From a virus, in IMG/VR virus record IMGVR_UViG_3300007609_000005, positions 68,460 to 132,459 of that record: 64,000 nucleotides of DNA. One strand, given 5' to 3'. This document shows, piece after piece, positions 2,075 through 50,672 of this stretch. The stretch's first letter is position 1; the number at the start of each line of letters is the position of its first letter. Position numbers and translations under genes: made by a program. The notes under the pieces are model-generated. The model saw nothing but the letters and a program-made list of their open reading frames with translations, was not told the DNA's origin and made no database searches.

Positions 2075-2383
2075 ATGAAGAATGAATTAGTTCCAAAAAT
2101 AGGACAGCAAATAATCTGTATAAAAAGTGATCATATCACTGATATAAATGATGGTATATCTAAAGGCAAAACTTATACCATTCATGATATAACTACTCCA
2201 GAGGATAACAGAAATGGTTGGGCACATGGAACAAAAAGCTGTGTTTTCTTATTTGAACCAAAGTGGTCGATTATTATTGATAACGGAACAATAGTCAGTT
2301 ATAACCTTTCAGAATTATGTGAATATTTCAATGCTAAAGGACTACTCAGAAATGATACAATAAATAGCATACTATATGGATAG
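2075..2383 (+). CDS. hypothetical protein with C-terminal RxxxIxxIL tag
   Basis: Ends LLRNDTINSILYG; SH3/KOW-like start KIGQQIICI. Confidence 0.7.
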   Translation: MKNELVPKIGQQIICIKSDHITDINDGISKGKTYTIHDITTPEDNRNGWAHGTKSCVFLFEPKWSIIIDNGTIVSYNLSELCEYFNAKGLLRNDTINSILYG

Positions 2384-2429
2384 TTATTTTCACGGCAAAG
2401 AAAATATTGGGTAACTAAATTTCATTCCG

Positions 2430-2437
2430 TATATTTG
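2430..2437 (+). promoter_or_regulatory. Bacteroidota-type -7 promoter element (TAnnTTTG)
   Basis: TATATTTG upstream of ORF 2457. Confidence 0.6.
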
Positions 2438-2456
2438 TTCATATAATAAATATGCA

Positions 2457-2768
2457 ATGAAAATAAACCTAAGCGAAAATGTTATCATATACCCAAGTAA
2501 AGAAGGTTGGATAAAAATCTATGAAACATTTGCAAATAGGTATAGGAAACCCTATAATGAAGCAATAAACCATATAGATGAGTATAACCGAACAGATGAT
2601 AATGGATTTAAGGAACAATTATGGGTAATTATGGAAATGTATAATGGGTTATTATATAATGGAAGTACATTACTCTCTAATATGGATGTGGACCTATTGA
2701 ATAATTATACCCTATCTGAACAAGATAAAAGAAGTATTAAATTACAAAATATCTTAGACAATAAATAA
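2457..2768 (+). CDS. hypothetical protein with C-terminal tag
   Basis: Ends DKRSIKLQNILDNK. Confidence 0.7.
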   Translation: MKINLSENVIIYPSKEGWIKIYETFANRYRKPYNEAINHIDEYNRTDDNGFKEQLWVIMEMYNGLLYNGSTLLSNMDVDLLNNYTLSEQDKRSIKLQNILDNK

Positions 2769-2784
2769 TATTAAATTATTTTTG

Positions 2785-2792
2785 TATATTTG
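2785..2792 (+). promoter_or_regulatory. TAnnTTTG promoter element
   Basis: TATATTTG followed by an A/C-rich leader and ATG at 2812. Confidence 0.6.
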
Positions 2793-2811
2793 TACAAACA
2801 AACACTCACAA

Positions 2812-3246
2812 ATGGAAATTTACGAAGTAACTTACAAGAACGAATTAGCAAGAGTAAAAAAATACCCATCAGATTATTATGATATCGATGGGAAAATAGC
2901 ATTCCGTGTTGTAATCGAAGAGAATGTTCATACAGTTGTGGTTATGGCAAAAAACATAGAAGCAGTTCGTAACGTGTATAAAGAGGAAACTCACACATGT
3001 AATGGATTCACAAAACGAACATTATATGATGTTGAAATAAAACACTTACGTTCCGAAGAAAATCAATTTGAAGCACTTTTCCCAGATGATAAAGTGACTA
3101 CAGTCAAGCCACAGAAAACCAAAACAACCAGAGACATCCGGGAAGAAGATGCATTCTGTGCAGACGAAGTTCAAGAAAGGTATAGTAAATTGGATGACTC
3201 AGGTAAAGAATATATGAGAACTCACAGAGAATACTCAGATTTTTGA
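2812..3246 (+). CDS. hypothetical protein
   Basis: Start moved to MEIYEV, downstream of the promoter box. Confidence 0.7.
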   Translation: MEIYEVTYKNELARVKKYPSDYYDIDGKIAFRVVIEENVHTVVVMAKNIEAVRNVYKEETHTCNGFTKRTLYDVEIKHLRSEENQFEALFPDDKVTTVKPQKTKTTRDIREEDAFCADEVQERYSKLDDSGKEYMRTHREYSDF

Positions 3247-3279
3247 TTAAATATATAATATACAAAAAAAAGAGTCAAA

Positions 3280-3552
3280 ATGACAAAAATCAAAAAATTC
3301 ACCGAAAATACATCACCGAAAGCAAAAGATAAGTACCTAACAGTTGGGAAAATGAAAGAATTGCTTAATAAATACCAAGATGATATGCTTATTGGAGCAA
3401 TTGGACACTTTGGTGAATTCATGGAAATGACGGATTTTGATGTTTCATCAAGAAAATCATATTTAACCAATGGGTCAAGTTGGAGAAACCGTGGTGAAGA
3501 AGTAACAGTAGTGGAACTCACAGTTCCTGAAAAGGGTCCAGAGCCAGACTAA
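3280..3552 (+). CDS. putative late/internal virion protein
   Basis: Starts MTKIKKFTEN; AAATATATA at 3249-3257. Confidence 0.65.
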   Translation: MTKIKKFTENTSPKAKDKYLTVGKMKELLNKYQDDMLIGAIGHFGEFMEMTDFDVSSRKSYLTNGSSWRNRGEEVTVVELTVPEKGPEPD

Positions 3553-4931
3553 CCATAGAACTGTTTCTTATACTCTTCCTTATACTTATTGGAGATTTCA
3601 TAATAATCATAATCAACAGTCCGTATTACATTTTCAAAAATCTCTTTCATATATTTATCAATGTAGCCATCCTCATATTTATATGACATATCGGTTACAT
3701 TTACTTTATCAGACAATTTAACCTCATTCAAGTCGAAATGGGGTTTTATATAATCAGTACCCATATAGAAAGAGTATTCTAAAATATCATTCTCATTACT
3801 GAAAATAATCATTTTATAAATTCCTTTCAATTTTTCCAAATAACTTTCAACAACCTCTTTTATCTCTTTTGAGACATATGCATTATTATAATACTCACCA
3901 TCTATTTCAACATAGTCATGGTAATTATTCTTATACATCTCCCACACCTCATTATCAATTATCCTTTCGATGTCCCGGTAAAACTCTTTCTTTATATCCC
4001 CTTTGGTTTTTTTACCTACCCATTGTTTCTTTTTAAAATAATCTTCCAAGGTATCTGACTTATGTTTTCTCATATCATCACTCAACATTTTCAGAAGAAA
4101 CCTTGACATTTTGTCCGGCTTAGAACGGATGTTATGTACCATATTAGAAATAACATACACCGCCTCGTGTTCATATGGTGAACCCAATCGATAATGATTG
4201 TGTGTTTCTTTCCCCAATGTTTCGTCCAATTCTTTCTTCAACTTATCACTATTCATAAATTTAACAATCCTATCATAGTTCTTTTCATCGTTAAAAGATA
4301 AAAATGATGCCAATTTAATTTGATCATACTTAGGTACCCAAGTAGTTTTGGATTCACCATCACCCTCTTCGAAATCAGAAGATACATTTTTAATGGGGTT
4401 CTTTTGGTTTAGGAAATCTTCTTTATTTTTATATAGATACAATGGAATATCACGTTTATTACAATAATGAATCAATTCAGAAACACCATCATAATATTCA
4501 TCATCTCTCTGATATGCATCACAATGTATTTCTAAGATATACTTACTTGCATTCGGTATAACAGCATCATTTGATACCAATCTATCCTCTTGTTCAGTTT
4601 CCAATGCACTCTTATAAGAACTCACTGTTTGGTACTCATTGGGGTCCTTCGACCATTGCCAATAATCAACGGGGATTATTTTATACTTGTTCCTTAATTT
4701 ACGATCATCAAGTAATATTTTAGTATTACCCGATCGATAACCACTACTCTTACTCCTAGTCATTGAGAAAAAGAAAAATCTACCCTTATTTATTTTAAGA
4801 TCGGACGATGTTCCTGCAGCCGATGTCAAACTTATTTCATCATTCTTAAGTATGTTGGCAACATAACCACTATTTGTGAAATGGTATAAACCATAACCTA
4901 CTTTTTCCAAAAAGGTTTTTAGGAACTTCAT
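3549..4931 (-). CDS. putative internal virion protein with N-terminal ADP-ribosyltransferase-like domain
   Basis: Starts MKFLKTFLE; LYHFT...FFSMTRS...EQEDRL pattern; paralogous to 8747..9451. Confidence 0.55.
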   Translation of the reverse strand: MKFLKTFLEKVGYGLYHFTNSGYVANILKNDEISLTSAAGTSSDLKINKGRFFFFSMTRSKSSGYRSGNTKILLDDRKLRNKYKIIPVDYWQWSKDPNEYQTVSSYKSALETEQEDRLVSNDAVIPNASKYILEIHCDAYQRDDEYYDGVSELIHYCNKRDIPLYLYKNKEDFLNQKNPIKNVSSDFEEGDGESKTTWVPKYDQIKLASFLSFNDEKNYDRIVKFMNSDKLKKELDETLGKETHNHYRLGSPYEHEAVYVISNMVHNIRSKPDKMSRFLLKMLSDDMRKHKSDTLEDYFKKKQWVGKKTKGDIKKEFYRDIERIIDNEVWEMYKNNYHDYVEIDGEYYNNAYVSKEIKEVVESYLEKLKGIYKMIIFSNENDILEYSFYMGTDYIKPHFDLNEVKLSDKVNVTDMSYKYEDGYIDKYMKEIFENVIRTVDYDYYEISNKYKEEYKKQFYG

Positions 4932-4936
4932 AATTT

Positions 4937-4945
4937 TATATATTA
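4937..4945 (-). promoter_or_regulatory. putative late promoter TAATATATA
   Basis: TATATATTA on the + strand, 5 nt before the ATG at 4931. Confidence 0.6.
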
Positions 4946-4979: not shown

Positions 4980-4983
4980 TAGT

Positions 4984-6264
4984 ATGTCAAAGAATAAAAA
5001 GTATATTAATGTGATGTTCCCATACCCAAGTGGTTCAGGCCTTCACATCGGACATGTTTATAATTATGCAATAATGGATTCCTATTCCAGGTATTGGCGG
5101 TATAGAGGATATGATGTATTTCAACCATTCGGATTTGACTCATTCGGACTTCCTGCCGAAAATTATGCCAAAAAAGTTGGAAGGAAGCCAAGTGAAGTCA
5201 CATATGAGAATATTGAAAACTTCAGAAAACAAATGAGAGACATGAATACTGAATATACTGAGTTGCTAACGACTTCGGATGTTTCATATTATAAATGGAC
5301 ACAGTGGATATTCAGTAAGTTGAGAGAACATGGTTTGGCATACAAAAAAGATGGTGAAGTGAATTGGTGTACATCGTGTGAAACTGTCTTGGCAAGAGAA
5401 CAAGTTAAAGATGGTGTGTGTAAAAGGTGTAGTTCTACCGTGGAAGAGAAGGTAATGAACCAATGGTATTTCAAGATAACCGATTACAAGGACAGGTTGA
5501 TCAAAAATTTGGATCACATCGACTACCCACAATCAACTATCAATGCACAAAGAAATTGGTTGGAGAATTTGCACGATTGGTGTGTTTCAAGACAAAGAAG
5601 TTGGGGATGTCCAATTCCCGTTGAAAATGAAACAGACACATTGGATACATTTGTCGATTCATCTTTCTATTTTGTTCGATATTGTGACCCATTCAATGAT
5701 GAAGAATTGTGTTCAAGAGATAAATACCAACAAGTCGATATGTATGTTGGTGGAAGTGAACACGCCTGTATGCACTTGATATATGCCAGGTTCATTCATA
5801 TGTTCTTGTACGATATTGGTGTTGTCCCGGTCGAAGAACCATTCAAAAGTGTAAGACACCAAGGTATGATATTGAATGATGGTGAAAAGATGTCAAAGTC
5901 AAAAGGAAATACAATAAATCCCGATGATTACGACCCAGATGAGTTGAGAATGTACTTGATGTTCATTGGCCACTATTTCGATGGTGGTTCGTGGTCAGAT
6001 AAGAATATAAAGGGAATTAGACGATTCATCGGCAGGTTTAAGGAATGGATGTCGAGAGAAGGTGATCATGTTATTGACATCGAACCATTCAAAGAGAAAG
6101 TTTTCAATTATACGGAATCTTTCAAATTCAACAAAGTTGTTTCTGAGTATATGACATTGGTGAATAAGAATAGAAAATACAACATAACCCCTGAAGTTAA
6201 AAAAGAATTGACCAATATTTTGAAAATATATATCCCCGGTTTAGAATTGGGTGATGGTGATTAA
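4984..6264 (+). CDS. leuS: minimal leucyl-tRNA synthetase (426 aa; no CP1 editing or C-terminal domain)
   Basis: MFPYPSGSGLHIGH, GFDSFGLPAENYA, YYKWTQWIF, DWCVSRQRSWGCPIP, DTFVDSSFYF, YVGGSEHACMHLIYARF, KMSKS. Confidence 0.95.
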   Translation: MSKNKKYINVMFPYPSGSGLHIGHVYNYAIMDSYSRYWRYRGYDVFQPFGFDSFGLPAENYAKKVGRKPSEVTYENIENFRKQMRDMNTEYTELLTTSDVSYYKWTQWIFSKLREHGLAYKKDGEVNWCTSCETVLAREQVKDGVCKRCSSTVEEKVMNQWYFKITDYKDRLIKNLDHIDYPQSTINAQRNWLENLHDWCVSRQRSWGCPIPVENETDTLDTFVDSSFYFVRYCDPFNDEELCSRDKYQQVDMYVGGSEHACMHLIYARFIHMFLYDIGVVPVEEPFKSVRHQGMILNDGEKMSKSKGNTINPDDYDPDELRMYLMFIGHYFDGGSWSDKNIKGIRRFIGRFKEWMSREGDHVIDIEPFKEKVFNYTESFKFNKVVSEYMTLVNKNRKYNITPEVKKELTNILKIYIPGLELGDGD

Positions 6265-6329: not shown

Positions 6330-6527
6330 ATGAATATCACAAACGAAAAAATGCTTTCTGATCAAGAAAACTCAAAACTGTGGTTCAATAACTTGACATC
6401 AGGTGAAGAACAAATGTTATTGTATAAATATAATCACAAAAATGCATTCCTATCAACAAAGGAGGTTGAGGAAATGTGGAAATCCGAATTATCTGAATCA
6501 TTGACCAATAGAGTGAATGACATCTGA
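6330..6527 (+). CDS. hypothetical protein
   Basis: Likely start MNITNE after an A-rich leader. Confidence 0.55.
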   Translation: MNITNEKMLSDQENSKLWFNNLTSGEEQMLLYKYNHKNAFLSTKEVEEMWKSELSESLTNRVNDI

Positions 6528-6849
6528 AATTAAAAAAAGTATATTAATATCATTATTCACAACCCAAGGAAATTATGTGAGCAATGATGGTATATTCCGA
6601 GTTGGTCCGGACTTCAAGCCATTTGACATTTTCATATTTCATAAATTAGTGGAAAGCTCAATATTACTTGAGATAAGTACTGGTATTGATGGTTCGGAAA
6701 AAGATACTAAATACAACTGGTGCTATATACTCAACCATAATAGACTTATAGAAAAAATCAAATCAATAGATGAAAAATTTACAGACTATGATTGGAATTA
6801 TCTATTAAGATTGTCAAGGGAAAATAAACTAAACAATATTCTAAGTTGA
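6517..6849 (+). CDS. hypothetical protein with C-terminal tag
   Basis: Ends LSRENKLNNILS. Confidence 0.7.
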   Translation: MTSEIKKSILISLFTTQGNYVSNDGIFRVGPDFKPFDIFIFHKLVESSILLEISTGIDGSEKDTKYNWCYILNHNRLIEKIKSIDEKFTDYDWNYLLRLSRENKLNNILS

Positions 6850-7795: not shown

Positions 7796-7990
7796 ATGGA
7801 AAACATAACAGTAAATGCATTAGAATTGGCATCAGAATTAGCCGACCAAAAACTCAGAGCCGATTGGAGTGAATCCATCACCATTGATGCAGGAGATGGT
7901 GAAGAAGTATTTTACACGGAAGAGGCACAAGACCTTTTTAATGAATACTATGACAAATATTTCACCTTGATAAATTCTTGCAAGGCGTGA
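7796..7990 (+). CDS. hypothetical protein
   Basis: 64-aa acidic ORF after TATATTTG at 7758-7765. Confidence 0.65.
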   Translation: MENITVNALELASELADQKLRADWSESITIDAGDGEEVFYTEEAQDLFNEYYDKYFTLINSCKA

Positions 7991-8421
7991 TGTATAAAAT
8001 AGAACGCCATAATCTAGTAACCGAAACCATTAAAGACATTCTTTATGTTTTTGGTGGTAGGAAAATCTATACCATAGATACACATTCATCGTCTTATAAT
8101 AGTAAAAAAGCATATTTTCTAAATACTGAAGAAGAAATCCCCATACACATATACACGAAACTGTATAATGCACATCTTTTAAGTATTGAGGGTGATGTCT
8201 ACCTTGGGGAATCAAAACCATGGTATAATCAATTGAAAAGATTTCTACCCAAAGACCCAAGTGTGGAAAATAAAGTTATAACAGTTTACACATTTAACGA
8301 ACCATTGATACGGTTTCGAGTACACGGCTTAATTTCAAGTGGTGATTGGAAACAAACTGAACGGGATACATTGAAGACAATGAAGCGTAACATAAGAATA
8401 AATGAAATTTTGAGTAACTAA
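7990..8421 (+). CDS. hypothetical protein with C-terminal tag
   Basis: TGATG coupling to the previous gene; ends MKRNIRINEILSN. Confidence 0.7.
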   Translation: MYKIERHNLVTETIKDILYVFGGRKIYTIDTHSSSYNSKKAYFLNTEEEIPIHIYTKLYNAHLLSIEGDVYLGESKPWYNQLKRFLPKDPSVENKVITVYTFNEPLIRFRVHGLISSGDWKQTERDTLKTMKRNIRINEILSN

Positions 8422-8746: not shown

Positions 8747-9451
8747 ATGAAACACTTGAAGAGTTTTGAGTCTAAGAATTATCCAACTTTATACCACTAT
8801 ATCCCCTTATACAACCTTATCAAAGTATTTGAGGAATATACAAGAACCGGTAAATTCTTATTAAAGACCGATGTCTGCCCAGAAAGAACCAATAACAAAC
8901 CCGTTGTTAGTTTAAGTAGAAACTCACAGATGAACAGTGTCGATTTATCGATGTCAAAACAACTATGTAGAATATCCTTTGATGGAGAAAAATTATCACA
9001 TAGATTTAAAATGAAACCATATGCCGATTCAACATACACAAAAGGTATTGATGGTGAAGAAGAAGAAATGCTATTTCTAAATGATGATGGCACTTACACA
9101 AATACAATCAACAACCAAATACCTTGTAGATATGAGGGTGATGTTACAGATTGCATAATACGAATAGATATACTCACAAAGGTCACTGAAGTCAGAAATG
9201 GTCAATCTGGGTATGTTTCTTGGTCGGATAAGTATGATGATTACAACCCAAAATACCTTAACCGAAAAGATGAACACGATGATATGCAAAGAGACCATGA
9301 TAACATGGTCCGTAAGTTATTCCAAACCATACGTGAAAATAAAATACCTTTCCCTGTCAGACTTGTTAAAAAGTTCTCAAATATAAAGTATCAAGATCGT
9401 TATATTGATAAATGGAACAGACGAAGTTATCGATATAATAAAGGTAATTGA
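8747..9451 (+). CDS. ART-like putative internal virion protein
   Basis: Likely start MKHLKSFES after a TA repeat; LYHY...VSLSRN...EEEE; paralog of 3549..4931. Confidence 0.55.
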   Translation: MKHLKSFESKNYPTLYHYIPLYNLIKVFEEYTRTGKFLLKTDVCPERTNNKPVVSLSRNSQMNSVDLSMSKQLCRISFDGEKLSHRFKMKPYADSTYTKGIDGEEEEMLFLNDDGTYTNTINNQIPCRYEGDVTDCIIRIDILTKVTEVRNGQSGYVSWSDKYDDYNPKYLNRKDEHDDMQRDHDNMVRKLFQTIRENKIPFPVRLVKKFSNIKYQDRYIDKWNRRSYRYNKGN

Positions 9452-9919: not shown

Positions 9920-10486
9920 TTACACTAAGTAATCGAAAGCCTCTTTGTATAGGTTTATCAAATTCTTATCATACCTAGACTCATCTCTCCAAGCAGAGAA
10001 TGATGCACTCATAGTAGAACCATCCAAAGTAGCAACCAAATATGTTTTTTTGTTTCCAACTATTTTCTGTAATTCCGATGGAGATAAACCATCCACATCT
10101 TCTTCGAAATAATCAATCTCTTGGATAGTACCAAGTGGATTCGTGTATGTTGCAGTTACCGGCAACTCTTCATAATATGTTACACCCAATTGATAAATTC
10201 CCTTTTTGACCATTAGTGCAGCCTTCTTCTCATCCACACTCGGAACAGTGTGCTTCATTATGGCAGACCAACTTGGTCTTTTCATATCTCCAACGTTCAA
10301 ATAATCTTCTACATCAAAATTATAGTGATGATAAAGAACTTGTGACAGTAACCAATACTGATTACGTTCAATGCAATCATCTACGAACGAATAATATTTT
10401 ATGAAGTTTTCACTGCCAAGTTTGGCAATTTTGTCTATCTTTCGATAGAAATTGTTCATTTGTCGTTTCTGTGATATCCAAGCCAT
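9920..10486 (-). CDS. hypothetical late protein
   Basis: 188-aa ORF; TAATATATA box at 10491-10499. Confidence 0.7.
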   Translation of the reverse strand: MAWISQKRQMNNFYRKIDKIAKLGSENFIKYYSFVDDCIERNQYWLLSQVLYHHYNFDVEDYLNVGDMKRPSWSAIMKHTVPSVDEKKAALMVKKGIYQLGVTYYEELPVTATYTNPLGTIQEIDYFEEDVDGLSPSELQKIVGNKKTYLVATLDGSTMSASFSAWRDESRYDKNLINLYKEAFDYLV

Positions 10487-10496
10487 ATCCTATATA

Positions 10497-11546
10497 TTAG
10501 AATGTACCATCAGTCCGAACTTTATCTTCGGTAGGTTGCACCTCTTCCTCATTCTGGCTTGCTTCTGCTTCTGCCTCAACTTTAACCTCTTCCTTTGGTT
10601 CTTCTGTGGCCTCTCCACTCTCTTCACTTCCTTTCTTGGTCTTTTCATCATACCTATCTACTTGGATAACTTTACCTAGATCTATTTTGAATCCCTCATT
10701 ATCACCTTCATCGGTTCTCACTTGAACTTGCCGTTTAGGACCAGAACCATCAAGTAGTTCGATGACAGTTGCCCTAGTTCCTTCATAATTATCATTATCT
10801 TGTGCATTTGACTTTGAGAAATATGTTATTTTATCACCCTTCTCTATTTCATTCTTAGGATCAAGGAAGGGAGATTCTTCCCACTGATAATTATCTGGGT
10901 CATCCATTGCCATTTCCATATCAAACTCAGAAGAAACCTCCTTAGGCTCTTTTTTAAGTGTTTCTGTTTCTTGTTTCTCCAATTCGACATTTTGTTCAGT
11001 CTTTTTTTGGAGATCGTTGGCAATATTGCTCAGATCATTATTATTCTTCAACTGTTCCTCACTTATGCCCACTTGGTCATAGATAATTGCCCTTTCCCTT
11101 TCGAGAAGTTCTTGTTGCATTTCTATTTTCATTAACTTGATATAGTTTTTCATTCGTGGGTCTTTTTCCTCTTTCATCTGTTCTTTGAAACGAATGTCAA
11201 ACTTCTCCTTGGATAATTTTATTTGCTTTTCAAAATTTTCCTTATTCTCTTTATAAGCATTACTCAGTTCTTCCATTTTCTTATCATCGACTTCCGGTTC
11301 TCCTTCTTGTGTAGTTTTAACATATTCTGCAAAATCTCTCAGAGATTTCAACATAATATTCTGTTTGGCAATCAATTCTGCTTTATAATCTTCGATTATT
11401 TTCTCAACTTCGGCTGCCGAGCCGAACATTTTGGAGAATTCTTTTGATACTTTGTTCTTAACCATATTCTTTAGTTTGTTGAACATATCTCCAACAACAC
11501 CCTCATTATATTTCTTGTGTGATTCAAATGTCCTTATATACCTCAT
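10497..11546 (-). CDS. coiled-coil acidic putative internal head protein
   Basis: MRYIRTFES start; late box 11568-11576; Glu/Lys-rich. Confidence 0.7.
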   Translation of the reverse strand: MRYIRTFESHKKYNEGVVGDMFNKLKNMVKNKVSKEFSKMFGSAAEVEKIIEDYKAELIAKQNIMLKSLRDFAEYVKTTQEGEPEVDDKKMEELSNAYKENKENFEKQIKLSKEKFDIRFKEQMKEEKDPRMKNYIKLMKIEMQQELLERERAIIYDQVGISEEQLKNNNDLSNIANDLQKKTEQNVELEKQETETLKKEPKEVSSEFDMEMAMDDPDNYQWEESPFLDPKNEIEKGDKITYFSKSNAQDNDNYEGTRATVIELLDGSGPKRQVQVRTDEGDNEGFKIDLGKVIQVDRYDEKTKKGSEESGEATEEPKEEVKVEAEAEASQNEEEVQPTEDKVRTDGTF

Positions 11547-12922: not shown

Positions 12923-13186
12923 ATGAGCCACCAACAAGGAGAAATGACATTTCAAGAATTCAATGAGAGAGTTATGACCACGAAACATTCTGTGTGGTTT
13001 GATGCATTACATATCCAAAAAAGAAAAAGACTTTATAGAGAATGGGGATATTTCTCAAATGACCTAATTGGGAAAAATAAAAAACCATCACTCAGAAAGT
13101 TTATTTACAACATAAGAAATAATAGACAGTATTATACAGTACCCAAGCAGGCATTGAGAAAAAATATTTTAGATAAAATACTATGA
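12923..13186 (+). CDS. hypothetical protein with C-terminal tag
   Basis: Ends ALRKNILDKIL; TAATTTTG at 12889-12896. Confidence 0.65.
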   Translation: MSHQQGEMTFQEFNERVMTTKHSVWFDALHIQKRKRLYREWGYFSNDLIGKNKKPSLRKFIYNIRNNRQYYTVPKQALRKNILDKIL

Positions 13187-14151: not shown

Positions 14152-14652
14152 ATGGAACCATCTGTGGCTTTCACATCCTTCGGTATTCTTTTGGGCATTA
14201 TATTCACTTGTATGTGTCTTCTAATATTCACCTTGACCATTTCAAATAAATCACTTAAAAATGAAGTGGATTCACTTAAAAAATATAGGGAGAAATTTTC
14301 AAAACGAAAGAATAAACTAAGAAAGGGAATTTATCAGACAAAATGGTTTAATGTTAAGGATAAAGAAATAAACCCAAACAACTATGCATCATGGTCTACG
14401 ACTTTTACAGTACAAGAACTTGGAGAAAAGACCGGTAACAAAACAAAGGTTGAAATAATCGATTGCTTTTGTAGTGACCGTTCAAAGTTAGAAACATTGG
14501 ATTATTATAAGAATTGGTTGAATGATAAATATGGTGGTTATGTCGATTTGAGTAATATTGAATGGATAGAAACAAAGTCCAAAGACGAAATAAGGGGAGA
14601 AAAATTAGAAGAGATCCTATCTTCCGAAGATACAGATAAACAATATTCATAA
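14152..14652 (+). CDS. membrane-anchored hypothetical protein with C-terminal tag
   Basis: N-terminal hydrophobic helix; EIRGEKLEEILSS near the C-terminus. Confidence 0.7.
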   Translation: MEPSVAFTSFGILLGIIFTCMCLLIFTLTISNKSLKNEVDSLKKYREKFSKRKNKLRKGIYQTKWFNVKDKEINPNNYASWSTTFTVQELGEKTGNKTKVEIIDCFCSDRSKLETLDYYKNWLNDKYGGYVDLSNIEWIETKSKDEIRGEKLEEILSSEDTDKQYS

Positions 14653-15917: not shown

Positions 15918-16281
15918 TTTTGTGAATAATGCAATAGACCTCTTCATAGTTTTTTGTTATTTCCTTGGTGAAAGGAAGTTACCAAAATATGTGAAGAGGT
16001 CTTTTTTATTCAATAATGAACTTGAAGTAAAAGTTTGGGCACTTACTGGAAATGAGGAGGATATAACAGATGCCATCAACTCAGTATTCTTATTTGAAAA
16101 ACCCACTATCACTAATTTCCATAAACTAAGAAAACACAAACTATTGAGTAAATTCATAGAATTATGTTTAAAAAGGGAAATTTATACAAAGCCAAAGTCA
16201 ATGCTGCCATATATTAGGTGTACAACAGAATCCATACAAGTAGCCAGACGTAAAAAACTTAAAAAGATATTAGGTAAATAG
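15871..16281 (+). CDS. hypothetical protein with C-terminal tag (start uncertain)
   Basis: Ends ARRKKLKKILGK. Confidence 0.6.
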   Translation: MISKKYNPMHSFSLSSFVNNAIDLFIVFCYFLGERKLPKYVKRSFLFNNELEVKVWALTGNEEDITDAINSVFLFEKPTITNFHKLRKHKLLSKFIELCLKREIYTKPKSMLPYIRCTTESIQVARRKKLKKILGK

Positions 16282-18080: not shown

Positions 18081-18545
18081 ATGAAACCATTGACAATGTA
18101 TATTATTTGTGCGTTATTAATACTTGCAATAATTATAACTGTTATATCATATCAATCCAAAATTAATTCACTGAATAAAGAATATCATGGGTCAATATCA
18201 ACTGTGAAAAACTACTTAAAAGACCAACGATCATTAAAGGTAGGTGATGTCGGTATTATTCGTAACTATAAATTGGAAGTCACATCCACCGGTGAAAATT
18301 TTAAAGTTGACTTTGAAGTTATAATAACTGATGTGAGTGAGAAAGATGCAAAAATTCAAATAACTGATATGTCAAGTGTTTATTCATATGCAAAAGACCC
18401 ATCAAACCATCAAAGCATAATAAACTTTGTTGATAAAACTTGGGTATCAAAATCTACAATAAGTCCAATTATCGGAGCAAAATCATTAAGAAACGATAAG
18501 ATAGAAAAGTTATTAAACGAATACGAAGATAAAGAAAATGATTAA
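18081..18545 (+). CDS. membrane-anchored hypothetical protein with C-terminal tag
   Basis: N-terminal TM helix; LKVGD; SLRNDKIEKLLNE. Confidence 0.7.
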   Translation: MKPLTMYIICALLILAIIITVISYQSKINSLNKEYHGSISTVKNYLKDQRSLKVGDVGIIRNYKLEVTSTGENFKVDFEVIITDVSEKDAKIQITDMSSVYSYAKDPSNHQSIINFVDKTWVSKSTISPIIGAKSLRNDKIEKLLNEYEDKEND

Positions 18546-19014: not shown

Positions 19015-19402
19015 CTCAACAGATGAAAACGATACTAAGAAATATATGATGAAATTAAAATCCATCATAGTTCATAATATGAAGAATTCAGAATGGTCAT
19101 TTGGCGATACAAATGATGAATTTGTATCAGAATACATAGAAATATTTTACAACACCACATTTCAACAATGGAAGATTACAATATACACAAGTAAAGAACC
19201 AACAATCATAAATACCATAAATGCACCTCAATTATTCAATTGGTTCGAGTTTCATTATTACCGTGTTTTCTATATTGTTAAAAGTGCCAAAAACCACGTG
19301 AAAAGAAAAGAAGAAAAACGATTGGCCAAAATAACCAAATCCTTTATTGAGAATAACCAATCCGAAAATAGAAATGCTATATTTGAAGAATTACTAAATT
19401 AA
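19007..19402 (+). CDS. hypothetical protein with C-terminal tag
   Basis: Likely start MNNSTDE; ends ENRNAIFEELLN. Confidence 0.6.
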   Translation: MNNSTDENDTKKYMMKLKSIIVHNMKNSEWSFGDTNDEFVSEYIEIFYNTTFQQWKITIYTSKEPTIINTINAPQLFNWFEFHYYRVFYIVKSAKNHVKRKEEKRLAKITKSFIENNQSENRNAIFEELLN

Positions 19403-23498: not shown

Positions 23499-23943
23499 TG
23501 TCGATAGAACATTTGACTACAACCACCCAAGATTAGACAATGGTCAATATAACAAAGCATCTATTATACACTATATGAATTTTGATAGATTCGAATCACT
23601 TGAACACTTAGACGAAGGCACATTCACTCTTATGTTTCATAGGATATACACTGATGTGTATTTAGATACACCCGAAATATTGAACAATAAGAAAGATAGA
23701 TTGAATCTCTTCCAACTGTTATTTGATTGGGAGGAATTTTATGACATAGCATATAAACAGGCCATAGAAAACAGTAACATATTTGATAATTTTGATCATG
23801 TTGATAAAGACATTAAACTTTTATACACGATATCAGATAATCATGTTGGTAAAATATTAGAACAAACTATGAATGTTTTACAAGAAGATGTTAAAAAGGA
23901 AATAAGAAGATTGAAAATGCAAAAAATAACTGATCAGAAATGA
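23491..23943 (+). CDS. hypothetical protein (weak C-terminal tag)
   Basis: Ends [14 protein letters not shown]. Confidence 0.65.
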
Positions 23944-26285: not shown

Positions 26286-26558
26286 CTACTTGCCATCAAG
26301 TATAGCATTAAGTTTATTATTTCTAGTAGCCTTTGCATCAATCGTAAGCCAATGTACGCCTAGTTCAGTATACTTATCAAGTGCTATGACGTAACAGTTG
26401 TATGAATACCATTCTTCATTGGTTTCCTTAGAAATGTTGTGAATAATTGATGTTATACGAACTTTATTTTCACTAAATATTTCTTTAGTTGCATTTTCTC
26501 TGAAACTAAAGCTACAATCACAAATATCACCCACCATGAATTTTGGTTTCTTTTCCAT
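26286..26558 (-). CDS. SH3/KOW-like hypothetical protein with C-terminal tag
   Basis: Likely start MEKKPKFMVGD, 5 nt after TATATTTG (26564-26571); ends ATRNNKLNAILDGK. Confidence 0.7.
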   Translation of the reverse strand: MEKKPKFMVGDICDCSFSFRENATKEIFSENKVRITSIIHNISKETNEEWYSYNCYVIALDKYTELGVHWLTIDAKATRNNKLNAILDGK

Positions 26559-31993: not shown

Positions 31994-31995
31994 TA

Positions 31996-32217: not shown

Positions 32218-32244
32218 TTCAAATATAATTCGTATATTTGTAAT

Positions 32245-32490: not shown

Positions 32491-32536
32491 TCACACCCTT
32501 ACTATAAATTGAATCATACAAAAATAAAAAATTAAA

Positions 32537-33124
32537 ATGGGATATACAGTATTTGCAAAAGTAAAATCACCCGAAGTGGCAAAAGCATTTGGGGACTTCT
32601 TCTATGACCACTGCGAAAAGGGTATAACTGCAGTCATCAAAAGTAAGTACCCAACCTATCCGATCTCCGAGGACAAATACTCTGCATTGAGTGTGGGGAA
32701 AGATAACCTTGGTTATACCGGACATTTTAGAAATGGCGACCGTTTTATTGGTTTCGATTACAATGCAGCCGCGCCAAGTACAGAAAGAGAATTTGCCTTT
32801 GAAGTAGTCCGAATGATACAACGTGAAGAAGGAAAACCAACACATTATTATTATGATGGTTCTCTATGTAAAATTGGACCAAAGACACTCCGGACAAAGA
32901 TTCGGGGAAATGCAGAGTATCATACCAAAGAAGATCATGAGGCAGGAAGAACAGAACAAACAGTTGAGGGTCACATTGAGAAACTTACACAAATGGCGTG
33001 TTACTCATATGATTGGGACAACGTAAAACCTGATCAGATATTGACCATCATTGATGATGAAGTTGAAAGACTCCGAACATTGTGGTTGGAAAAAAGGGAA
33101 TTATATATCGAAAAATTTTCATAA
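32537..33124 (+). CDS. hypothetical protein
   Basis: 195-aa ORF. Confidence 0.7.
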   Translation: MGYTVFAKVKSPEVAKAFGDFFYDHCEKGITAVIKSKYPTYPISEDKYSALSVGKDNLGYTGHFRNGDRFIGFDYNAAAPSTEREFAFEVVRMIQREEGKPTHYYYDGSLCKIGPKTLRTKIRGNAEYHTKEDHEAGRTEQTVEGHIEKLTQMACYSYDWDNVKPDQILTIIDDEVERLRTLWLEKRELYIEKFS

Positions 33125-33148
33125 AACATATCCTAATAACAGAATAAA

Positions 33149-33367
33149 ATGGAAAGATTTAGAGTTAGTGAAAACTTAGACTTTGAAGAAATTGTAGCAA
33201 AGTTCAACACTTTACAAGAGGTTGTTGATTATTGTTATAGCAGAAAAGATATTTCCCCGGCATACTTAAATGTAGAGTGCCTAAAAGATGATATAAAAAT
33301 AGACTGTGATGAATTGTTGGGTGCTTTTGAAGATGGTAAACGCCCAATGGATTTGAAACACTTCTAA
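33149..33367 (+). CDS. hypothetical protein
   Basis: 72-aa ORF. Confidence 0.6.
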   Translation: MERFRVSENLDFEEIVAKFNTLQEVVDYCYSRKDISPAYLNVECLKDDIKIDCDELLGAFEDGKRPMDLKHF

Positions 33368-33409
33368 TACTACATATCCAATTTATAAATACACATTAAT
33401 ACGCAATCA

Positions 33410-34138
33410 ATGAAACACAATCACCCAACATTATCGGAAGACTATTATGGACACAAAGGGGAACAAGCCATTAAAGGAATTGAAAAACTTATCACTACAA
33501 ATCATAAGATAAATGATAAACCGGTTCTTGAAGAGATATTTAAACTTGGTTATAAAATGGGTGAATTAAGTAAAAAGTCACCTATGGGCGTGAGAGCCAT
33601 TACCAAATCAGGGTTTAATATTGAGAGGGATGTTGTTGAAAGAGCCTCAGAACTTAACCCAGAAAGAATTGACACTAAAAGAGATCTTGTATATAATGGT
33701 CCGGAAATAACATCCAATGATGTTATAGTAGTTGATGGCAATGTGAAACAGATTATCGAATGGCTAAAGAATAAGGATAGTGAATATATGGGGTGTGTTT
33801 ATAGGTTCGAAACCAAGGAAGAAATTGATGAAATAATTAAAGATATTGATCCTAATGATGATTTTTTTGAAGGCGAAGATGAAGCCACCTGGATATTGAA
33901 AAAGTATAATCAATCAGAAGTGAGTGTGTGGTTAACTAAACTTTATCAGATCGGATTATCGATCGGACAAGAAGAAACTGATGAAATGCCCGTAGAAGTA
34001 ATAGATTATTTCAGACAAAAACAAATGGCTGATGATTTTGCTAAAAGCAATACAATACCCAAAGAGGACGTTGAATATGCAAGAAAGAGGGCAGAGAATA
34101 TGGCTGATAGAATAGGTCATGAGGTGATTGAAGAATGA
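33410..34138 (+). CDS. hypothetical protein
   Basis: 242-aa ORF. Confidence 0.7.
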   Translation: MKHNHPTLSEDYYGHKGEQAIKGIEKLITTNHKINDKPVLEEIFKLGYKMGELSKKSPMGVRAITKSGFNIERDVVERASELNPERIDTKRDLVYNGPEITSNDVIVVDGNVKQIIEWLKNKDSEYMGCVYRFETKEEIDEIIKDIDPNDDFFEGEDEATWILKKYNQSEVSVWLTKLYQIGLSIGQEETDEMPVEVIDYFRQKQMADDFAKSNTIPKEDVEYARKRAENMADRIGHEVIEE

Positions 34139-35036: not shown

Positions 35037-35345
35037 ATGATCATTAATTATCTGATAAAAGTTTCATCTCTTGATTATAATAAGGGAGAGTTCAGATTAA
35101 AGCAATCCAAACAGAATGTTGATATTGATTTTAAGGATATGCCCGTGATGGAACATCTTATTGACCGAGATGGGTATTCAACAAGACCAACAGATACATC
35201 AATAATCTTTTACGTAAATGATATTACAGGATTCATTGACAATTATTCCGACCCTAACCCAGCACAAGAAGAAATAAAAAGAGGAATTCTCAACACTATT
35301 AAAGGAGAAGCCCGAAAAGGAAAACTCAAAGACCTGTTGGAATAA
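35037..35345 (+). CDS. hypothetical protein with C-terminal tag
   Basis: Ends EARKGKLKDLLE. Confidence 0.7.
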   Translation: MIINYLIKVSSLDYNKGEFRLKQSKQNVDIDFKDMPVMEHLIDRDGYSTRPTDTSIIFYVNDITGFIDNYSDPNPAQEEIKRGILNTIKGEARKGKLKDLLE

Positions 35346-37279: not shown

Positions 37280-37651
37280 ATGTTTGACATTGATATCAAA
37301 AAAGGTCTTAGATTCCGAAATAAGTATATATTCATCATAAGTGATGGTATGTATGTATCTGACTATACTAAGAATATATTAGTTAAAAAATTTGGAGATA
37401 AAAACGGATTAATAAAGATAGCCACAAAGGATCACAGATTATATACCATAACATTTAAAAAGCATGGTAATAAATCACCTGAATGGGTAGTGTGTATGTC
37501 TTGTGGTGATTATACCTATCCAAATTTTTACCACAATAAAAGTTACACGATAGGTGTTAGGAAAAGAAGAGTTTTAATAAGAAAGATAATTGAAATGTGT
37601 AGACAAACACCTATTGCACGAGACTATAAATTAGAGAATCTATTGTCTTAG
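37280..37651 (+). CDS. hypothetical protein with C-terminal tag
   Basis: Ends IARDYKLENLLS. Confidence 0.7.
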   Translation: MFDIDIKKGLRFRNKYIFIISDGMYVSDYTKNILVKKFGDKNGLIKIATKDHRLYTITFKKHGNKSPEWVVCMSCGDYTYPNFYHNKSYTIGVRKRRVLIRKIIEMCRQTPIARDYKLENLLS

Positions 37652-44917: not shown

Positions 44918-45187
44918 ATGCAAGCAACAAAAGAAGTATTCGAATTTTTACTAAAAGGCGATAACCAAAAAGTACTTGTCACAAAACTAAAACGTTCTTG
45001 GACATGGGAAATTGTTATGGATGGTCAGTCAGATGATGGTGTACAAACCGTCCAAGGTAAAGGAAGTTACACAGAGAACAAGACATTTGCAAAGATATTT
45101 GACCGACTTTACAAACTTTATCCAAATGATAATGATGCAAAAAGATTGGTTCGGAATATCCAATTAACCAGGTTATTGCAAAAATAA
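44918..45187 (+). CDS. hypothetical protein with C-terminal tag
   Basis: Ends LVRNIQLTRLLQK. Confidence 0.65.
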   Translation: MQATKEVFEFLLKGDNQKVLVTKLKRSWTWEIVMDGQSDDGVQTVQGKGSYTENKTFAKIFDRLYKLYPNDNDAKRLVRNIQLTRLLQK

Positions 45188-47869: not shown

Positions 47870-48579
47870 TCATCTTCAAATTCGGGTAATAGTTTAACCC
47901 TTTTGTGTAAATATGTTGACGAACCGAAATTCTTATCTGTTTCAAGACCTCTTTTCAAATAGGTATTTGTTATCGATTTTAACTTCTCACCATATTGATA
48001 AACATCCCACTTCTTAAATTTCCTCTCACCTATCCTTTTAAACGTTACCTCTCCTATTTTATAATCATCTACCATAACATCCTTATCAACCATTTTACCA
48101 CCTTCATTAAATCGATAAGAGTCAGATATCTCAACATCGACAAAAGAAACAACTATTGGTACTTTATTATCTTTGGCAAGATTGTATATCCATGCAGTAT
48201 ATCCCTTTTCTCTTGAAAATTCATACTTCCCATCCAAAACATCCGTTCCTGGTTCATGAACATACCCACTTGTTTTTGAATTCAAATCATATATTTCACT
48301 TACGGGTATTTTACATACATAAACATATTTATGACCCCCTCCAATATTATCATATATGTACCCATTTTTTGTACAATAGAAAAATGCACGGTTTTTGCCC
48401 CATGATTTATATTCCCCAGTAGAATGCATTCTTTGGGGCATACCAGGGGAAACAAACCCATCTGTTATATTGACATCTGAATAATGCCAAACCGTCATCA
48501 TACCATCTTCAATGGTCAATAATGACTCATCTATTGTTTCGGAAGAACTTGGTTCAAAATTTTCAAAGAATTTAATCAT
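47863..48579 (-). CDS. ART-like putative internal virion protein
   Basis: MIKFFENFE; VWHYS...AFFY...YVYVCKIP..IYDL; TA box at 48584-48592. Confidence 0.45.
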   Translation of the reverse strand: MIKFFENFEPSSSETIDESLLTIEDGMMTVWHYSDVNITDGFVSPGMPQRMHSTGEYKSWGKNRAFFYCTKNGYIYDNIGGGHKYVYVCKIPVSEIYDLNSKTSGYVHEPGTDVLDGKYEFSREKGYTAWIYNLAKDNKVPIVVSFVDVEISDSYRFNEGGKMVDKDVMVDDYKIGEVTFKRIGERKFKKWDVYQYGEKLKSITNTYLKRGLETDKNFGSSTYLHKRVKLLPEFEDDY

Positions 48580-48610
48580 AGTGTATATATAAATTTCTTA
48601 TCTTTGAACA

Positions 48611-48946
48611 ATGTTAGGAATAAACATACATATAGTATCATTTATAAACAAGACAATTATTGGATTAGTCCACCATATTAATCAGCTAAAGATAAAATAC
48701 TATAATAAACCTCACAAAAATCCATATTATGTGGGAGATGAGGTTAAAGTATGGGCATTATTTAAGGAATGGGATTGTATAATAAAAAGGTTTTCCATAT
48801 CAAAAAACAATGATCAGTGGATATATCACATAATATCTAAGTGTGGCAACGTAGATGGTTATTTTACCATAGATAAAATCTATGATTGTAAAAGATTGGA
48901 ACGAAATAAAAAACTTAATAAGTTACTTACCAATGGTAAGAAATAA
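48611..48946 (+). CDS. SH3/KOW-like hypothetical protein with C-terminal tag
   Basis: YYVGDEVKV; ends LERNKKLNKLL; TATCTTTG at 48599-48606. Confidence 0.7.
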   Translation: MLGINIHIVSFINKTIIGLVHHINQLKIKYYNKPHKNPYYVGDEVKVWALFKEWDCIIKRFSISKNNDQWIYHIISKCGNVDGYFTIDKIYDCKRLERNKKLNKLLTNGKK

Positions 48947-49148
48947 TCAAATATACATTATTTGTGATGCTTGCTCATTTGAAAGTCCATACAATGGACC
49001 AGTCGATCATACATCAATGAATTTTGGCTTTGTTATAAGGAGAAATTGTATGAGGTGTGATAATTATATAGTCACTACTGTATCACAAGAAAACATTACG
49101 GCTATTAAAAGACACAAAATAATCAAAAAAATTTTAACAAAATCATAA
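48882..49148 (+). CDS. zinc-ribbon protein with C-terminal tag (start probably MVRNN)
   Basis: CDAC...CMRC; ends IKRHKIIKKILTKS. Confidence 0.6.
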   Translation: MIVKDWNEIKNLISYLPMVRNNQIYIICDACSFESPYNGPVDHTSMNFGFVIRRNCMRCDNYIVTTVSQENITAIKRHKIIKKILTKS

Positions 49149-49178
49149 ACTTTGAACACATTTTATAATACCTAATAT

Positions 49179-49661
49179 ATGTTAGAGATCGAAAGAAAAT
49201 TCCTACTTAAAAGACTTCCCATTGAACCACCAAGTGAAGTATTGCTAATAAAGCAGTGGTACATGGATGTAAATGGTGTTATGGTGAGAGTACGAAAGGT
49301 TGAATTCAATGATGGTTCATTTGATTTTATCAAAACAATTAAAACACCCATAGATGAAATGACCTATGAGGAAAATGAATCACAGATGCTTCCAAAAGAT
49401 TTTTATGATTTTGTGGATGAATGTCTGGTCTCCGACAACTCTTATTACATAGCAAAAAAAAGGCACATCTATGTCAATGATAATGATAAATGGGAAGTTG
49501 ACCAATATCTCGATTTTGACTTGGTTGTGGCAGAACTTGAAATTCCCCACAAGGAATATTCTTTCGAGATTCCTGAACACATAAAAGATGAACTTATTAT
49601 GGAAGTAACCGGTAAAAGGGAATTTTCCAATTTTAGTTTATCAGAAAAATTAAACGACTAA
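49179..49661 (+). CDS. CYTH-domain (triphosphate tunnel) protein
   Basis: EIERKFLL, RVR, KKRH, WEVD, VVAELE. Confidence 0.9.
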   Translation: MLEIERKFLLKRLPIEPPSEVLLIKQWYMDVNGVMVRVRKVEFNDGSFDFIKTIKTPIDEMTYEENESQMLPKDFYDFVDECLVSDNSYYIAKKRHIYVNDNDKWEVDQYLDFDLVVAELEIPHKEYSFEIPEHIKDELIMEVTGKREFSNFSLSEKLND

Positions 49662-50267
49662 ATGGAAAATAAATTAGAACTTAGGCTTTATGGATTGGTT
49701 CCATATAACATCTCACCTATCCAACAAGGAATACAGTTTGGACATGCTGCTGTTCGATATTCAAGGCTCATCGAAAAGTTATATGAAAAACACCCAGATT
49801 CCCAACAAGTAACCGATATGAAAAATAAATATATCGATTGGGCAGATAATTGGGAAACCTTCATTATTCTCAATGGGGGAACAACCAATAAAGAACTGGG
49901 CAATGATCTACAACCAATTGGAACTTTAAACCAACATATGGAAACCCTAAAGAGAAATGGCATCCCTATTGGCTCAATGTATGAACCCGACTTGGGTAAT
50001 CAATTAACTGCAGTTGTATTCGTTGTAGATGAACGAGTTTTCAATAAAAAAGATTATCCGGATTTTAGAGAATATGTTGAAACTAAATTAAATGATAAAG
50101 AATTTGAATCAATAGTAGAAAACTATGGGAAGTATTTTACATTCAATGACCTATCCCACTCAACAGATATTCAACTACTTGAAACTTCCAAGGAATGGAG
50201 AGATATGGTTGGTGGTGACAAAAATGTTTTTTTGAAAGAGTTCTTGGAAGGTTTCAGATTGGCATAA
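49662..50267 (+). CDS. Pth2-like peptidyl-tRNA hydrolase family phage protein
   Basis: ISPIQQGIQFGHA, TFIILNGG, EPDLGNQLTAV. Confidence 0.6.
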   Translation: MENKLELRLYGLVPYNISPIQQGIQFGHAAVRYSRLIEKLYEKHPDSQQVTDMKNKYIDWADNWETFIILNGGTTNKELGNDLQPIGTLNQHMETLKRNGIPIGSMYEPDLGNQLTAVVFVVDERVFNKKDYPDFREYVETKLNDKEFESIVENYGKYFTFNDLSHSTDIQLLETSKEWRDMVGGDKNVFLKEFLEGFRLA

Positions 50268-50282
50268 AAATAAAAAACACAT

Positions 50283-50672
50283 GTGAAAAATATTACAATC
50301 GATAATTCTAATTTCTCATACACGAATATGGACATACAGACATCCATCACGAATGAAGTTACACTACACCTAAAATTTGACCGTAGGTTAATCAATGAAT
50401 CATTCATATATGACCTTTATGATAGACAATTTACAACCGTATATGTAAGCAATTATAAATTTGATATCAAACATTCTCTTGGTTCATTTTATGGATGTAT
50501 AATAAAGAAATTAGATACTTACCAAAACAATATTGAACTTGAAATAATATCCGATCACAACAATGCAAAACCACTTAAAGAACATCGATCAGAATTTATT
50601 AAGAATATTTTATCAACTCATGAAGATGAAAATAGTATAAAGAATAATAATAACGCAAATAAAATAAAGTGA
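50283..50672 (+). CDS. hypothetical protein with near-C-terminal tag
   Basis: EHRSEFIKNILST. Confidence 0.6.
   Translation: MKNITIDNSNFSYTNMDIQTSITNEVTLHLKFDRRLINESFIYDLYDRQFTTVYVSNYKFDIKHSLGSFYGCIIKKLDTYQNNIELEIISDHNNAKPLKEHRSEFIKNILSTHEDENSIKNNNNANKIK

Follow-up and report, generated by a model that had tools for sequence, protein, structure and literature searches.

A C-terminal tag shared by unrelated viral proteins

The 64,000-nucleotide stretch of DNA analysed here (hereafter, the window) is the final 64 kb of a 132,459-bp virus record of IMG/VR, IMGVR_UViG_3300007609_000005. Many of its otherwise dissimilar small proteins end in the same short peptide, with the consensus R-[N/D/E]-x-K-[L/I]-x-x-[I/L]-L, after which come 0-6 polar residues before the stop codon. 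This tag is a real and strong feature of the record. We think it probable, at roughly three chances in four, that it is an address label read by one partner. The C-terminal amphipathic helix would then serve as a portable label, recognised in trans through R1, K4, L5, I8 and L9, which would lie on one face. If a single partner reads it, the whole early accessory class of proteins would be handled together.

Genes of the record were called with a codon-usage score and greedy removal of overlaps, a crude procedure on which all counts for the record rest; it resulted in 202 genes and 92% coding sequence. We scored a loose motif, R...[LIMF]..[LIVM][LI], in the final 25 residues of each protein, and a strict one, R..[KR][LIM]..[LI]L. 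The loose motif is present in 37 of the 202 proteins (~18%), against a mean of 1.3 (maximum 8) in 500 shuffles of whole proteins and of 1.6 (maximum 6) when only the final 25 residues were shuffled. The strict motif has 24 matches in tails and a single one in protein interiors, with 0.04-0.10 in shuffles. The loose-motif tags stop 0-5 residues short of the C-terminus in 34 of the 37 cases. An earlier reading of this DNA (the sequence-only reading) had named enrichment over shuffled C-termini and a bias towards the chain end as the checks to make, and both bear it out (37 of 202 against ~1.5 for the enrichment). The two kinds of shuffle rule out an artefact of composition. Interior matches to the loose motif number 20 against 12.7 expected (maximum 25), so internal copies are no more frequent than by chance. 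Those that had been reported in the open reading frames (ORFs) starting at 30674 and 31490 fall among these 20, and we dropped internal copies as a component of the system.

The DNA encoding the tag is variable. In the record, its arginine is written as AGA (17), CGT (7), AGG (6), CGA (5) or CGG (2), its final leucine as TTA (10), CTA (9), TTG (9) or CTT (5), and position 5 with ten different codons. Because synonymous codons are mixed, we rejected a DNA repeat or a promoter read in frame as the origin of the tag. Selection acts on the peptide and not on the DNA, as the sequence-only reading had held.

The carriers were described as otherwise dissimilar, and they are. In a pairwise comparison of 39 carrier bodies, which span 43 to 305 aa, none of the 741 pairs reached E<0.05 (best 0.053), which excludes a single paralogue family as the source of the tag. 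A Pfam scan of 30 carriers in the record gave no match at the cut-off and four weak matches below it. There was none at the cut-off either for 10 large carriers of the related megaphage LR745206, and 0 of 10 window carriers had any match. Orthologues that can still be recognised, at 21-54% identity, retain the tag; R171, K174, L175 and L179 are invariant across a family of four orthologues (31-54% identity). For one carrier only two database homologues were found, and alignments are shallow. Tags have also been lost and gained: the product of gene 54 (599 aa) has a degenerate tail in the record and a full tag in two relatives, and the tagged protein g044 has an untagged paralogue, g168.

These results bear on the view that the tail holds no signal, being a relic of diverged paralogues, an in-frame DNA element or a by-product of K/N/I/L-rich composition. 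The variant tail of another megaphage, LR756501, sits mainly on tandem small paralogues, as a relic might. Against this stand the excess over tail shuffles that keep composition, the mixed synonymous codons, the unrelated bodies, and the pairs of tagged and untagged paralogues (g044 and g168) and orthologues (the gene 54 family). We regard the view as largely refuted and its chance of being right as minimal.

Wording and predicted structure of the tag

The tag has preferences beyond its core. Position 10 is in most cases N, D, S, T or G. Of 127 tags in LR745206, 111 have D, E or N at position 2 and 81 have K at position 4. The hydrophobic stripe is prolonged by weak preferences at -7, -4/-3 and 0, so that the tag is the end of a longer amphipathic helix. 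The AlphaFold2 (AF2) model of a carrier from the four-orthologue family (mean predicted local distance difference test [pLDDT] 87.6) places the tag in the last helix, at residues 169-179, with a short helix before it and a low-confidence linker at residues 143-158. A Foldseek search with this model found no match in the PDB (best E 0.16, TM 0.2), and a search of the ESM Atlas with the tag region returned only generic helix matches. The AF2 model of a second carrier (pLDDT 51.9) was too poor for use.

A terminal amphipathic helix on small proteins could also act without a separate reader, as a module for oligomerisation or solubility through which these proteins dimerise or co-assemble. The AF2 model, in which a floppy linker leads to two short helices and the tag forms the second, is compatible with this. 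However, 9-13 residues offer little length for a stable oligomer, positions 2 and 6 show no consistent charge pairing, and a specific socket is suggested by the invariant Arg and near-invariant Lys on the hydrophobic face and by the tight confinement to the C-terminus. The tag resembles the SHOCT domain (PF09851) in being a short C-terminal helical module on diverse proteins, as SHOCT is in bacteria and phages, but it has 9-13 residues instead of ~28. SHOCT was found in 0 of 30 carriers of the record (E up to 0.01) and in 0 of 10 large carriers of LR745206, and no other Pfam family took its place in these 40. Self-association is thus improbable in our assessment.

Targeting to the membrane by an amphipathic helix of the MinD or FtsA type deserves even less weight. 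The helix is basic, hydrophobic and C-terminal, as such a device would be. Nevertheless, it has only three hydrophobic positions, its Arg is invariant, position 2 is acidic or an amide in most tags of LR745206 (see above), and some carriers already have an N-terminal hydrophobic anchor. We consider this explanation very unlikely.

Carriers evolve fast and are probably early proteins

Many genes of the record have TAnnTTTG, which we take to be the Bacteroidetes -7 promoter element, a few bases 5' of ATG. A different, TAATATATA-like element stands 10-25 nt before the ATG of 48 of 163 untagged genes of the record and of 1 of 39 tagged ones. We assigned each gene to a promoter class by the first promoter-like element met when walking upstream in the same-strand run, so the classes are calls at the level of regular expressions rather than transcription data. 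On these calls, 71 tagged genes of LR745206 lie in host-type and 16 in TAATATATA-type units, against 209 and 395 of its other genes (odds ratio 0.12, Fisher 8e-17). The record shows the same split, with 12 and 2 for tagged genes against 41 and 49 for the others (p = 0.008). By their promoters, the carriers belong to the host-promoter (early) class, and the sequence-only reading had already placed several of them behind host-type promoters. They also evolve fast: 5 of 38 tagged proteins of the record have reciprocal best matches in LR745206, against 62 of 164 untagged ones. The carriers of LR745206 have a median length of 113 aa against 145 aa overall. TGA is the stop codon of 30% of tagged and 17% of other genes in LR745206, and of 38% and 11% in the megaphage LR756504, with no difference in the record. 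This excess is probably a feature of the gene class, with tightly packed early operons behind it.

The promoter classes weigh on the idea that the tag loads proteins into the prohead or another shell. The closest known precedent for the tag is found in terminal peptides that target unrelated cargo, and the helical pattern of the tag is like that of microcompartment encapsulation peptides. These and the cargo-loading peptides of encapsulins are short, terminal and joined by a loose linker to unrelated cargo, with an amphipathic helix in the microcompartment case. The capsid targeting sequence (CTS) of phage T4 is N-terminal and cleaved, with a site for the prohead protease, and directs a handful of late proteins into the prohead. 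Like the CTS, the tag is a phage-encoded terminal peptide on unrelated proteins that would act as an address. Unlike it, the tag is C-terminal and early-class, with over 100 carriers per genome. By promoter class the carriers are not late cargo: of their genes, 16 lie in late-type and 71 in host-type units in LR745206, the corresponding counts in the record being 2 and 12, and so they are anti-correlated with the late-type promoter class of proteins with an N-terminal label (below). The tag also differs from shell-loading peptides in its wording, which is not of the encapsulin type, and in its early-class expression. No gene for a bacterial microcompartment (BMC) shell protein (PF00936) was found in the record, LR745206, the megaphage LR756502, LR756504 or a 508-kb record described below. 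We therefore give targeting to a capsid or compartment little chance.

A separate N-terminal label, M-K-[HY]-[LI]-K-x-[FY]-N-E, has the opposite promoter split (34 against 3 by own promoter), and its genes lie 10-25 nt behind TAATATATA. Examples are MKHLKSFES, MKFLKTFLEK, MRYIRTFESH, MKYLKKYES and MEIKRFNQFNE, and carriers in the window include 3549-4931(-), 8747-9451(+), 10497-11546(-), 31124-31459(-) and 62425-62742(+), among others. Only 2 of the 943 proteins of LR745206 bear both labels. The N-terminal label is found in the same clade as the C-terminal tag, with a matching distribution, and is absent from the Lak phage Lak-A1. One might imagine that huge Bacteroidota phages run a two-label sorting code, with the tag on early proteins, the N-terminal label behind TAATATATA and clade-specific readers (ClpC/ClpP/ClpS, M16 and M28 peptidases), but we consider this speculative and rather unlikely to hold as a whole.

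Distribution across huge phages

Judging from its genes, the record is a fragment of a huge phage of the Mahaphage clade, uncultured, of Bacteroidota. It has a G+C content of 31-35% and an estimated completeness of 52% (CheckV), and encodes Hsp70/DnaK, DnaJ, a ClpC-type ATPase, class I aminoacyl-tRNA synthetases, an S-adenosylmethionine synthetase and the subunits of a T4-type topoisomerase II. The large subunit of the topoisomerase is closest, among named records, to those of LR745206 (635 kb, 60% identity) and LR756502 (642 kb, 57%), followed by LR756504 (42%), the Lak phages (37%) and LR756501 (36%). In the part of the literature consulted, genomes above 634 kb are all placed in the 'Mahaphage' clade, with Bacteroidetes as predicted hosts (PMC7162821), and LR745206 and LR756502 are handled as sister megaphages (PMC9723777).

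The sequence-only reading had also proposed to look for enrichment in related phages, and it is there. Relatives sampled around the topoisomerase gene have the tag on 4 of 33, 8 of 30, 15 of 64 and 13 of 59 ORFs. We then counted loose tail matches in whole genomes against tail shuffles, with Lak-A1 read with TAG as Gln. The tag is on 129 of 943 proteins in LR745206 (10.5 expected) and on 90 of 912 in LR756504 (10.3 expected), and a variant of it on 29 of 999 in LR756501 (5.4 expected). There is no enrichment in Lak-A1 (4 of 584, 3.4 expected) or LR756508 (2 of 688, 4.3 expected). When the final 14 residues were scanned without bias for enriched gapped patterns of any three residues, the tag came out in every positive genome and nothing in Lak-A1 or LR756508. 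Its wording differs by genome: R-[DEN]-x-K-[IL] in the record and LR745206, R-K-x-[KR]-I-x-x-L-L in LR756504, and K-R-T-K-L-[IM]-D-x-M-L-N in LR756501. In the first 50 kb of the cultured Chryseobacterium phage MA9V-2 there is no tag, the 2 matches in 59 being at chance level. The comparison covers only seven complete or near-complete genomes, and co-occurrences within it are confounded by phylogeny.

Two side observations concern tails in these genomes. In LR756501, two tandem arrays of small genes (215833-223697 and 274369-278528; 65-153 aa) form one paralogue family, with (E/D)EWKN-x-KRTKL-[IM]-D-x-ML-N, the version of the tail in that lineage, at the end of all products. A different basic and hydrophobic tail, W-F-G-K-[DN]-S-x-x-R-K-x-E-[LMI]-[LM]-K, is conserved at the end of a recognisable enzyme, the topoisomerase II large subunit (G000 31592-33442(-)), and of its orthologues at loci L005, L006, L008 and L009.

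A small phage with the same tag

We scanned IMG/VR with one codon-restricted version of the tag and obtained 119 stretches. Twelve of them were in frame, no more than 8 residues from the next stop and preceded by at least 30 open codons. These are mostly fragments of huge phages, but two (L263, L273) come from one small phage. Its record has 34,605 bp, is rated 100% complete (CheckV) and has no topoisomerase II (loci L370-L371). The two strict tags, REQKLNKLL-stop and RNKKINQILNEN-stop, end proteins of 56 and 73 aa in the early region (5541-5711(-) and 10398-10619(-)), and there are two partial tags besides. Divergent early promoters in this phage have the form TTTG...TAtcTTTG (Bacteroidota-type), and it has only a repeat protein and one weak match in common with the huge phages. 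Tail shuffles of its 43 proteins give 0.25 loose matches on average, and 10 of 300 reach 2. Since the search itself ensured one of the two tags, only the other counts as independent evidence, and ~0.02 such tags would be expected. The use of the tag by a 34-kb phage argues for a host protein as the reader, a hint that is thin.

This finding bears most directly on the alternative that the tag is a docking label with no role in degradation, a helix that plugs early proteins into one hub, probably host-encoded (for example, a clamp, RNA polymerase, a chaperone, or a scaffold at the pole or membrane), and leaves their lifetime unaffected. All the evidence for an address label (enrichment, codons, unrelated bodies, orthologues and early class) serves this alternative as well, and the two strict tags in an unrelated complete phage favour it. 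So does the spacing [DEN]-x-x-[IL]-x-x-[IL]-L from position 2, which equals that of the PIP box. The PIP-box consensus is Q-x-x-[LIM]-x-x-[FY]-[FY], and clamp-binding peptides are often found at the extreme C-terminus with basic flanks. Counted from tag position 2, the hydrophobic spacing x-x-h-x-x-h-h is identical. In contrast to the PIP box, the tag has neither the Gln nor the aromatic pair (its last two positions are I/L/V and L/I), has an invariant Arg one residue upstream, and has far too many clients for replication-linked partners. More than 100 clients per genome are also far above known viral hub motifs. The evidence from the small phage amounts to 2 tags in 43 proteins, and a wording that shifts between lineages is explained at least equally well by a phage reader that co-evolves. 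Neither a PDZ domain (PF13180) nor an S41 peptidase (PF03572), as would be expected of a phage reader of C-terminal tails of the Tsp/Prc or DegP type, is encoded in five huge-phage records. A purely docking role is possible, although we lean towards doubting it.

The phage Clp module as candidate reader

A more specific version of the address-label reading makes the tag a label for turnover by, or hand-over to, a Clp machine. Through the helix, early proteins would bind a Clp-type AAA+ unfoldase/protease, either the N-domain-less ClpC of the phage with ClpP and ClpS or a host equivalent, and these proteins would be short-lived and gone once early transcription ends. We hold this version tentatively, at somewhat less than even odds.

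The window encodes a ClpC-type unfoldase of 698 aa with a VGF ClpP-docking loop (50694..52790, +), which is a candidate reader only. It aligns with the ClpC of Staphylococcus aureus and Bacillus subtilis from chain residue ~153 on, with the VGF loop kept, and thus lacks the N-domain. Relatives are found in LR745206 and LR756502 (72% identity), LR756504 (44%, 666-aa frame), LR756501 (752-aa frame with a long N-terminal region) and LR756508 (657 aa, without the N-domain), and none was found in Lak-A1. There are two to three copies of ClpP in each of LR745206, LR756502 and LR756504, one weak match only in LR756508, and none in the 132-kb fragment. ClpS is present in LR745206, LR756502, LR756504 and the 508-kb record behind locus L115 (97% complete), all tag-rich; it had no match in LR756501, Lak-A1 and LR756508, which are tag-poor or tag-free, nor in a Bacteroides control genome. 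With ClpC, ClpP and ClpS all present in tag-rich genomes, a Clp proteolysis module of the phage is a reasonable candidate reader, and to this extent the earlier suggestion of a degron read by the phage ClpC finds circumstantial support.

Several observations weigh against it. LR756508 has an N-domain-less ClpC yet no tag. Among 80 IMG/VR loci with a ClpC relative, 71 have no tag in 10-kb flanks (which can miss tag clusters) and 7 have one; more than one is found only at L110 (2) and L115 (7). The complete 34.6-kb phage with two perfect tags has no Clp gene. These three points leave the evidence on the degron suggestion mixed. The promoter class of the Clp genes is mixed, with no late 'clearing' wave, and the co-occurrence of ClpC and the tag is all confounded by phylogeny. 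In the ClpC subclade of the window, the N-terminus is longer by ~30 residues, the last of which form an Asp run (DDDDxDD), and the C-terminus has a Lys-rich tail. Neither is present in the LR756504 copy or in the N-domain-less ClpC (~672 aa) of other viral contigs. We rejected the acidic extension as the docking site, for it is confined to its own subclade and lacking in LR756504 and LR756501. As the ClpC of LR756504 has no extension and that of LR756501 has a long N-terminal region, no single ClpC feature tracks the tag.

Comparison with known degrons is also divided. The ssrA tag, the MuA-type C-motif 2 and the SspB XB peptide are C-terminal degrons or adaptor-tether peptides of Clp unfoldases. 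As with these, a short C-terminal peptide stands on unrelated proteins, and the tag-rich phages encode ClpC, ClpP and ClpS. In contrast to these, the tag has another wording, is helical, has an invariant Arg, is followed by 0-10 variable residues, and is found on 14-18% of a viral proteome and in one expression class. The cognate unfoldase and peptidase that ssrA and the C-motif depend on are available (ClpC in the window; ClpP and ClpS in complete relatives). Known C-terminal Clp degrons require the extreme chain end, with the critical residues of ssrA and the C-motif at the free carboxylate, whereas 0-10 variable polar residues (mode 1-2) lie between the tag motif and the stop. In sum, the tag has the properties that a phage-wide addressing signal would have, being portable, selected as a peptide, C-terminal, tied to one expression class and kept in the clade; of the readings first offered for it, a hub, a compartment or ClpC, none is singled out.

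Other candidates were considered. DnaK is not supported as a specific reader, being present in all five megaphages, including the tag-free Lak-A1. A total of 68 genes of LR745206 are common to LR756504 and LR756501 and absent from Lak-A1 and LR756508, a list that is confounded by phylogeny and names no reader. Pfam searches with 30 of the 68 gave an RF-1 domain, bS21, M16, three M28-like peptidases, NusG, Dam, NUDIX, DUF4326 and 19 unknowns, with one weak sub-threshold match to pentapeptide repeats. In LR745206, the M16 (insulinase-type) gene lies at 310766-311875, the M28-like genes at 226974-228071, 276022-277188 and 401118-402320, ClpS at 180414-180695, the RF-1-domain gene at 48061-48477 and bS21 at 296645-296839. 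All are present in LR756504 and all but ClpS in LR756501, with no tblastn match in Lak-A1 or LR756508. The M16 and M28-like peptidases and ClpS, with ClpC and ClpP, amount to a sizeable proteolysis toolkit.

Regarding the Clp proteins themselves, a phage ClpP of LR745206 (123556-124221(-)) has RYGMIDEIL in its C-terminus, which fits the loose motif. We counted it as a false positive, since we take this type of C-terminus to be the usual end of ClpP. It strikingly resembles the tail wording RTKLIDKIL of LR756501. The region of ClpC in the window (49179-52790(+)) has a conserved gene order: a 160-aa ORF starting M-L-E-I-E-R-K-F-L-L, presumably CYTH-like, next a 201-aa ORF, then a tagged ORF (~115 aa, long polar tail) and last ClpC. 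The same order is found at IMG/VR loci L110 and L114, and the 160-aa ORF adjoins ClpC at L111 and L119.

Tagged genes of the window

Sixteen of the 101 called genes of the window are tagged, and ORF 48882-49148, dropped by the gene caller, adds one more. All 17 C-terminal strings listed by the sequence-only reading are found at the ORFs it named. Its figure of about 17 carriers is an undercount for the record, as the 68 kb that precede the window contain ~20 more. Fourteen of the strings end 0-5 residues before the stop, and those of the ORFs starting at 18081, 14152 and 50283 end 9, 10 and 19 residues before it.

All but one of the tags are on the + strand. The first four are RNDTINSIL (2348..2374; ORF 2075-2383, 102 aa), 2 aa before the stop, RSIKLQNIL (2730..2756; ORF 2457-2768), 3 aa, RENKLNNIL (6817..6843; ORF 6517-6849), 1 aa, and RNIRINEIL (8386..8412; ORF 7990-8421), 2 aa. 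RKNILDKIL (13157..13183) forms the final residues of ORF 12923/12944-13186. RGEKLEEIL (14593..14619; ORF 14152/14164-14652) and RNDKIEKLL (18489..18515; ORF 18081-18545) both belong to proteins with an N-terminal hydrophobic segment. Between and after these come RRKKLKKIL (16246..16272; ORF 15871/15991-16281), 2 aa before the stop, and RNAIFEELL (19370..19396; ORF 18893/19007-19402), 1 aa. The weak tag RRLKMQKIT (23905..23931), 3 aa before the stop of ORF 23491-23943, lies between the DnaK and DnaJ genes. The string is present as reported but matches a relaxed pattern only, and the LR745206 orthologue of this ORF ends in RDIKIKSIT.

The only tag on the - strand is RNNKLNAIL (26298..26324; ORF 26286-26537/26558), 3 aa before the stop. 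It is followed by RKGKLKDLL (35313..35339; ORF 35037-35345) and RDYKLENLL (37619..37645; ORF 37280-37651), each 1 aa before the stop, RNIQLTRLL (45152..45178; ORF 44918-45187), 2 aa, and RNKKLNKLL (48902..48928; ORF 48611-48946), 5 aa. RHKIIKKIL (49110..49136), 3 aa before the stop, ends ORF 48882-49148, which has a CxxC...CxxC pattern and overlaps its neighbour, hence its loss from the gene call. The transmembrane-anchored and Zn-ribbon carriers that had been proposed have possible counterparts in the hydrophobic segments of ORFs 14152 and 18081 and the cysteine pattern of ORF 48882. Finally, RSEFIKNIL (50586..50612), with its 19-aa polar tail, belongs to ORF 50283/50328-50672, directly 5' of ClpC, and this tagged ORF is kept upstream of ClpC at L110, L114 and in LR745206.

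Significance of the tag

A literature search, with supplementary annotations outside its reach, found no paper describing the tag, and the term 'C-terminal' occurs 0 times in the main texts of PMC7162821 and PMC9723777, as far as these sources were covered. In the literature searched, there was no prior description of a single label that is on 14-18% of a viral proteome, tied to early expression and outlasting the turnover of the proteins that carry it.

Terminal address peptides have so far been known for a few phage proteins (the T4 CTS), for cellular degrons and for shells. If one partner reads the tag, this partner would control more than 100 unknown early proteins and would open one experimental way into the 'dark matter' of the largest phages known. 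If the small phage uses the same label, the reader may be a host hub on which phages converge. A two-label code, if true, would mean virus-encoded sorting or timing of a third of the proteome via terminal tags. The tag peptide itself would be a ready-made portable tag for Bacteroidota.

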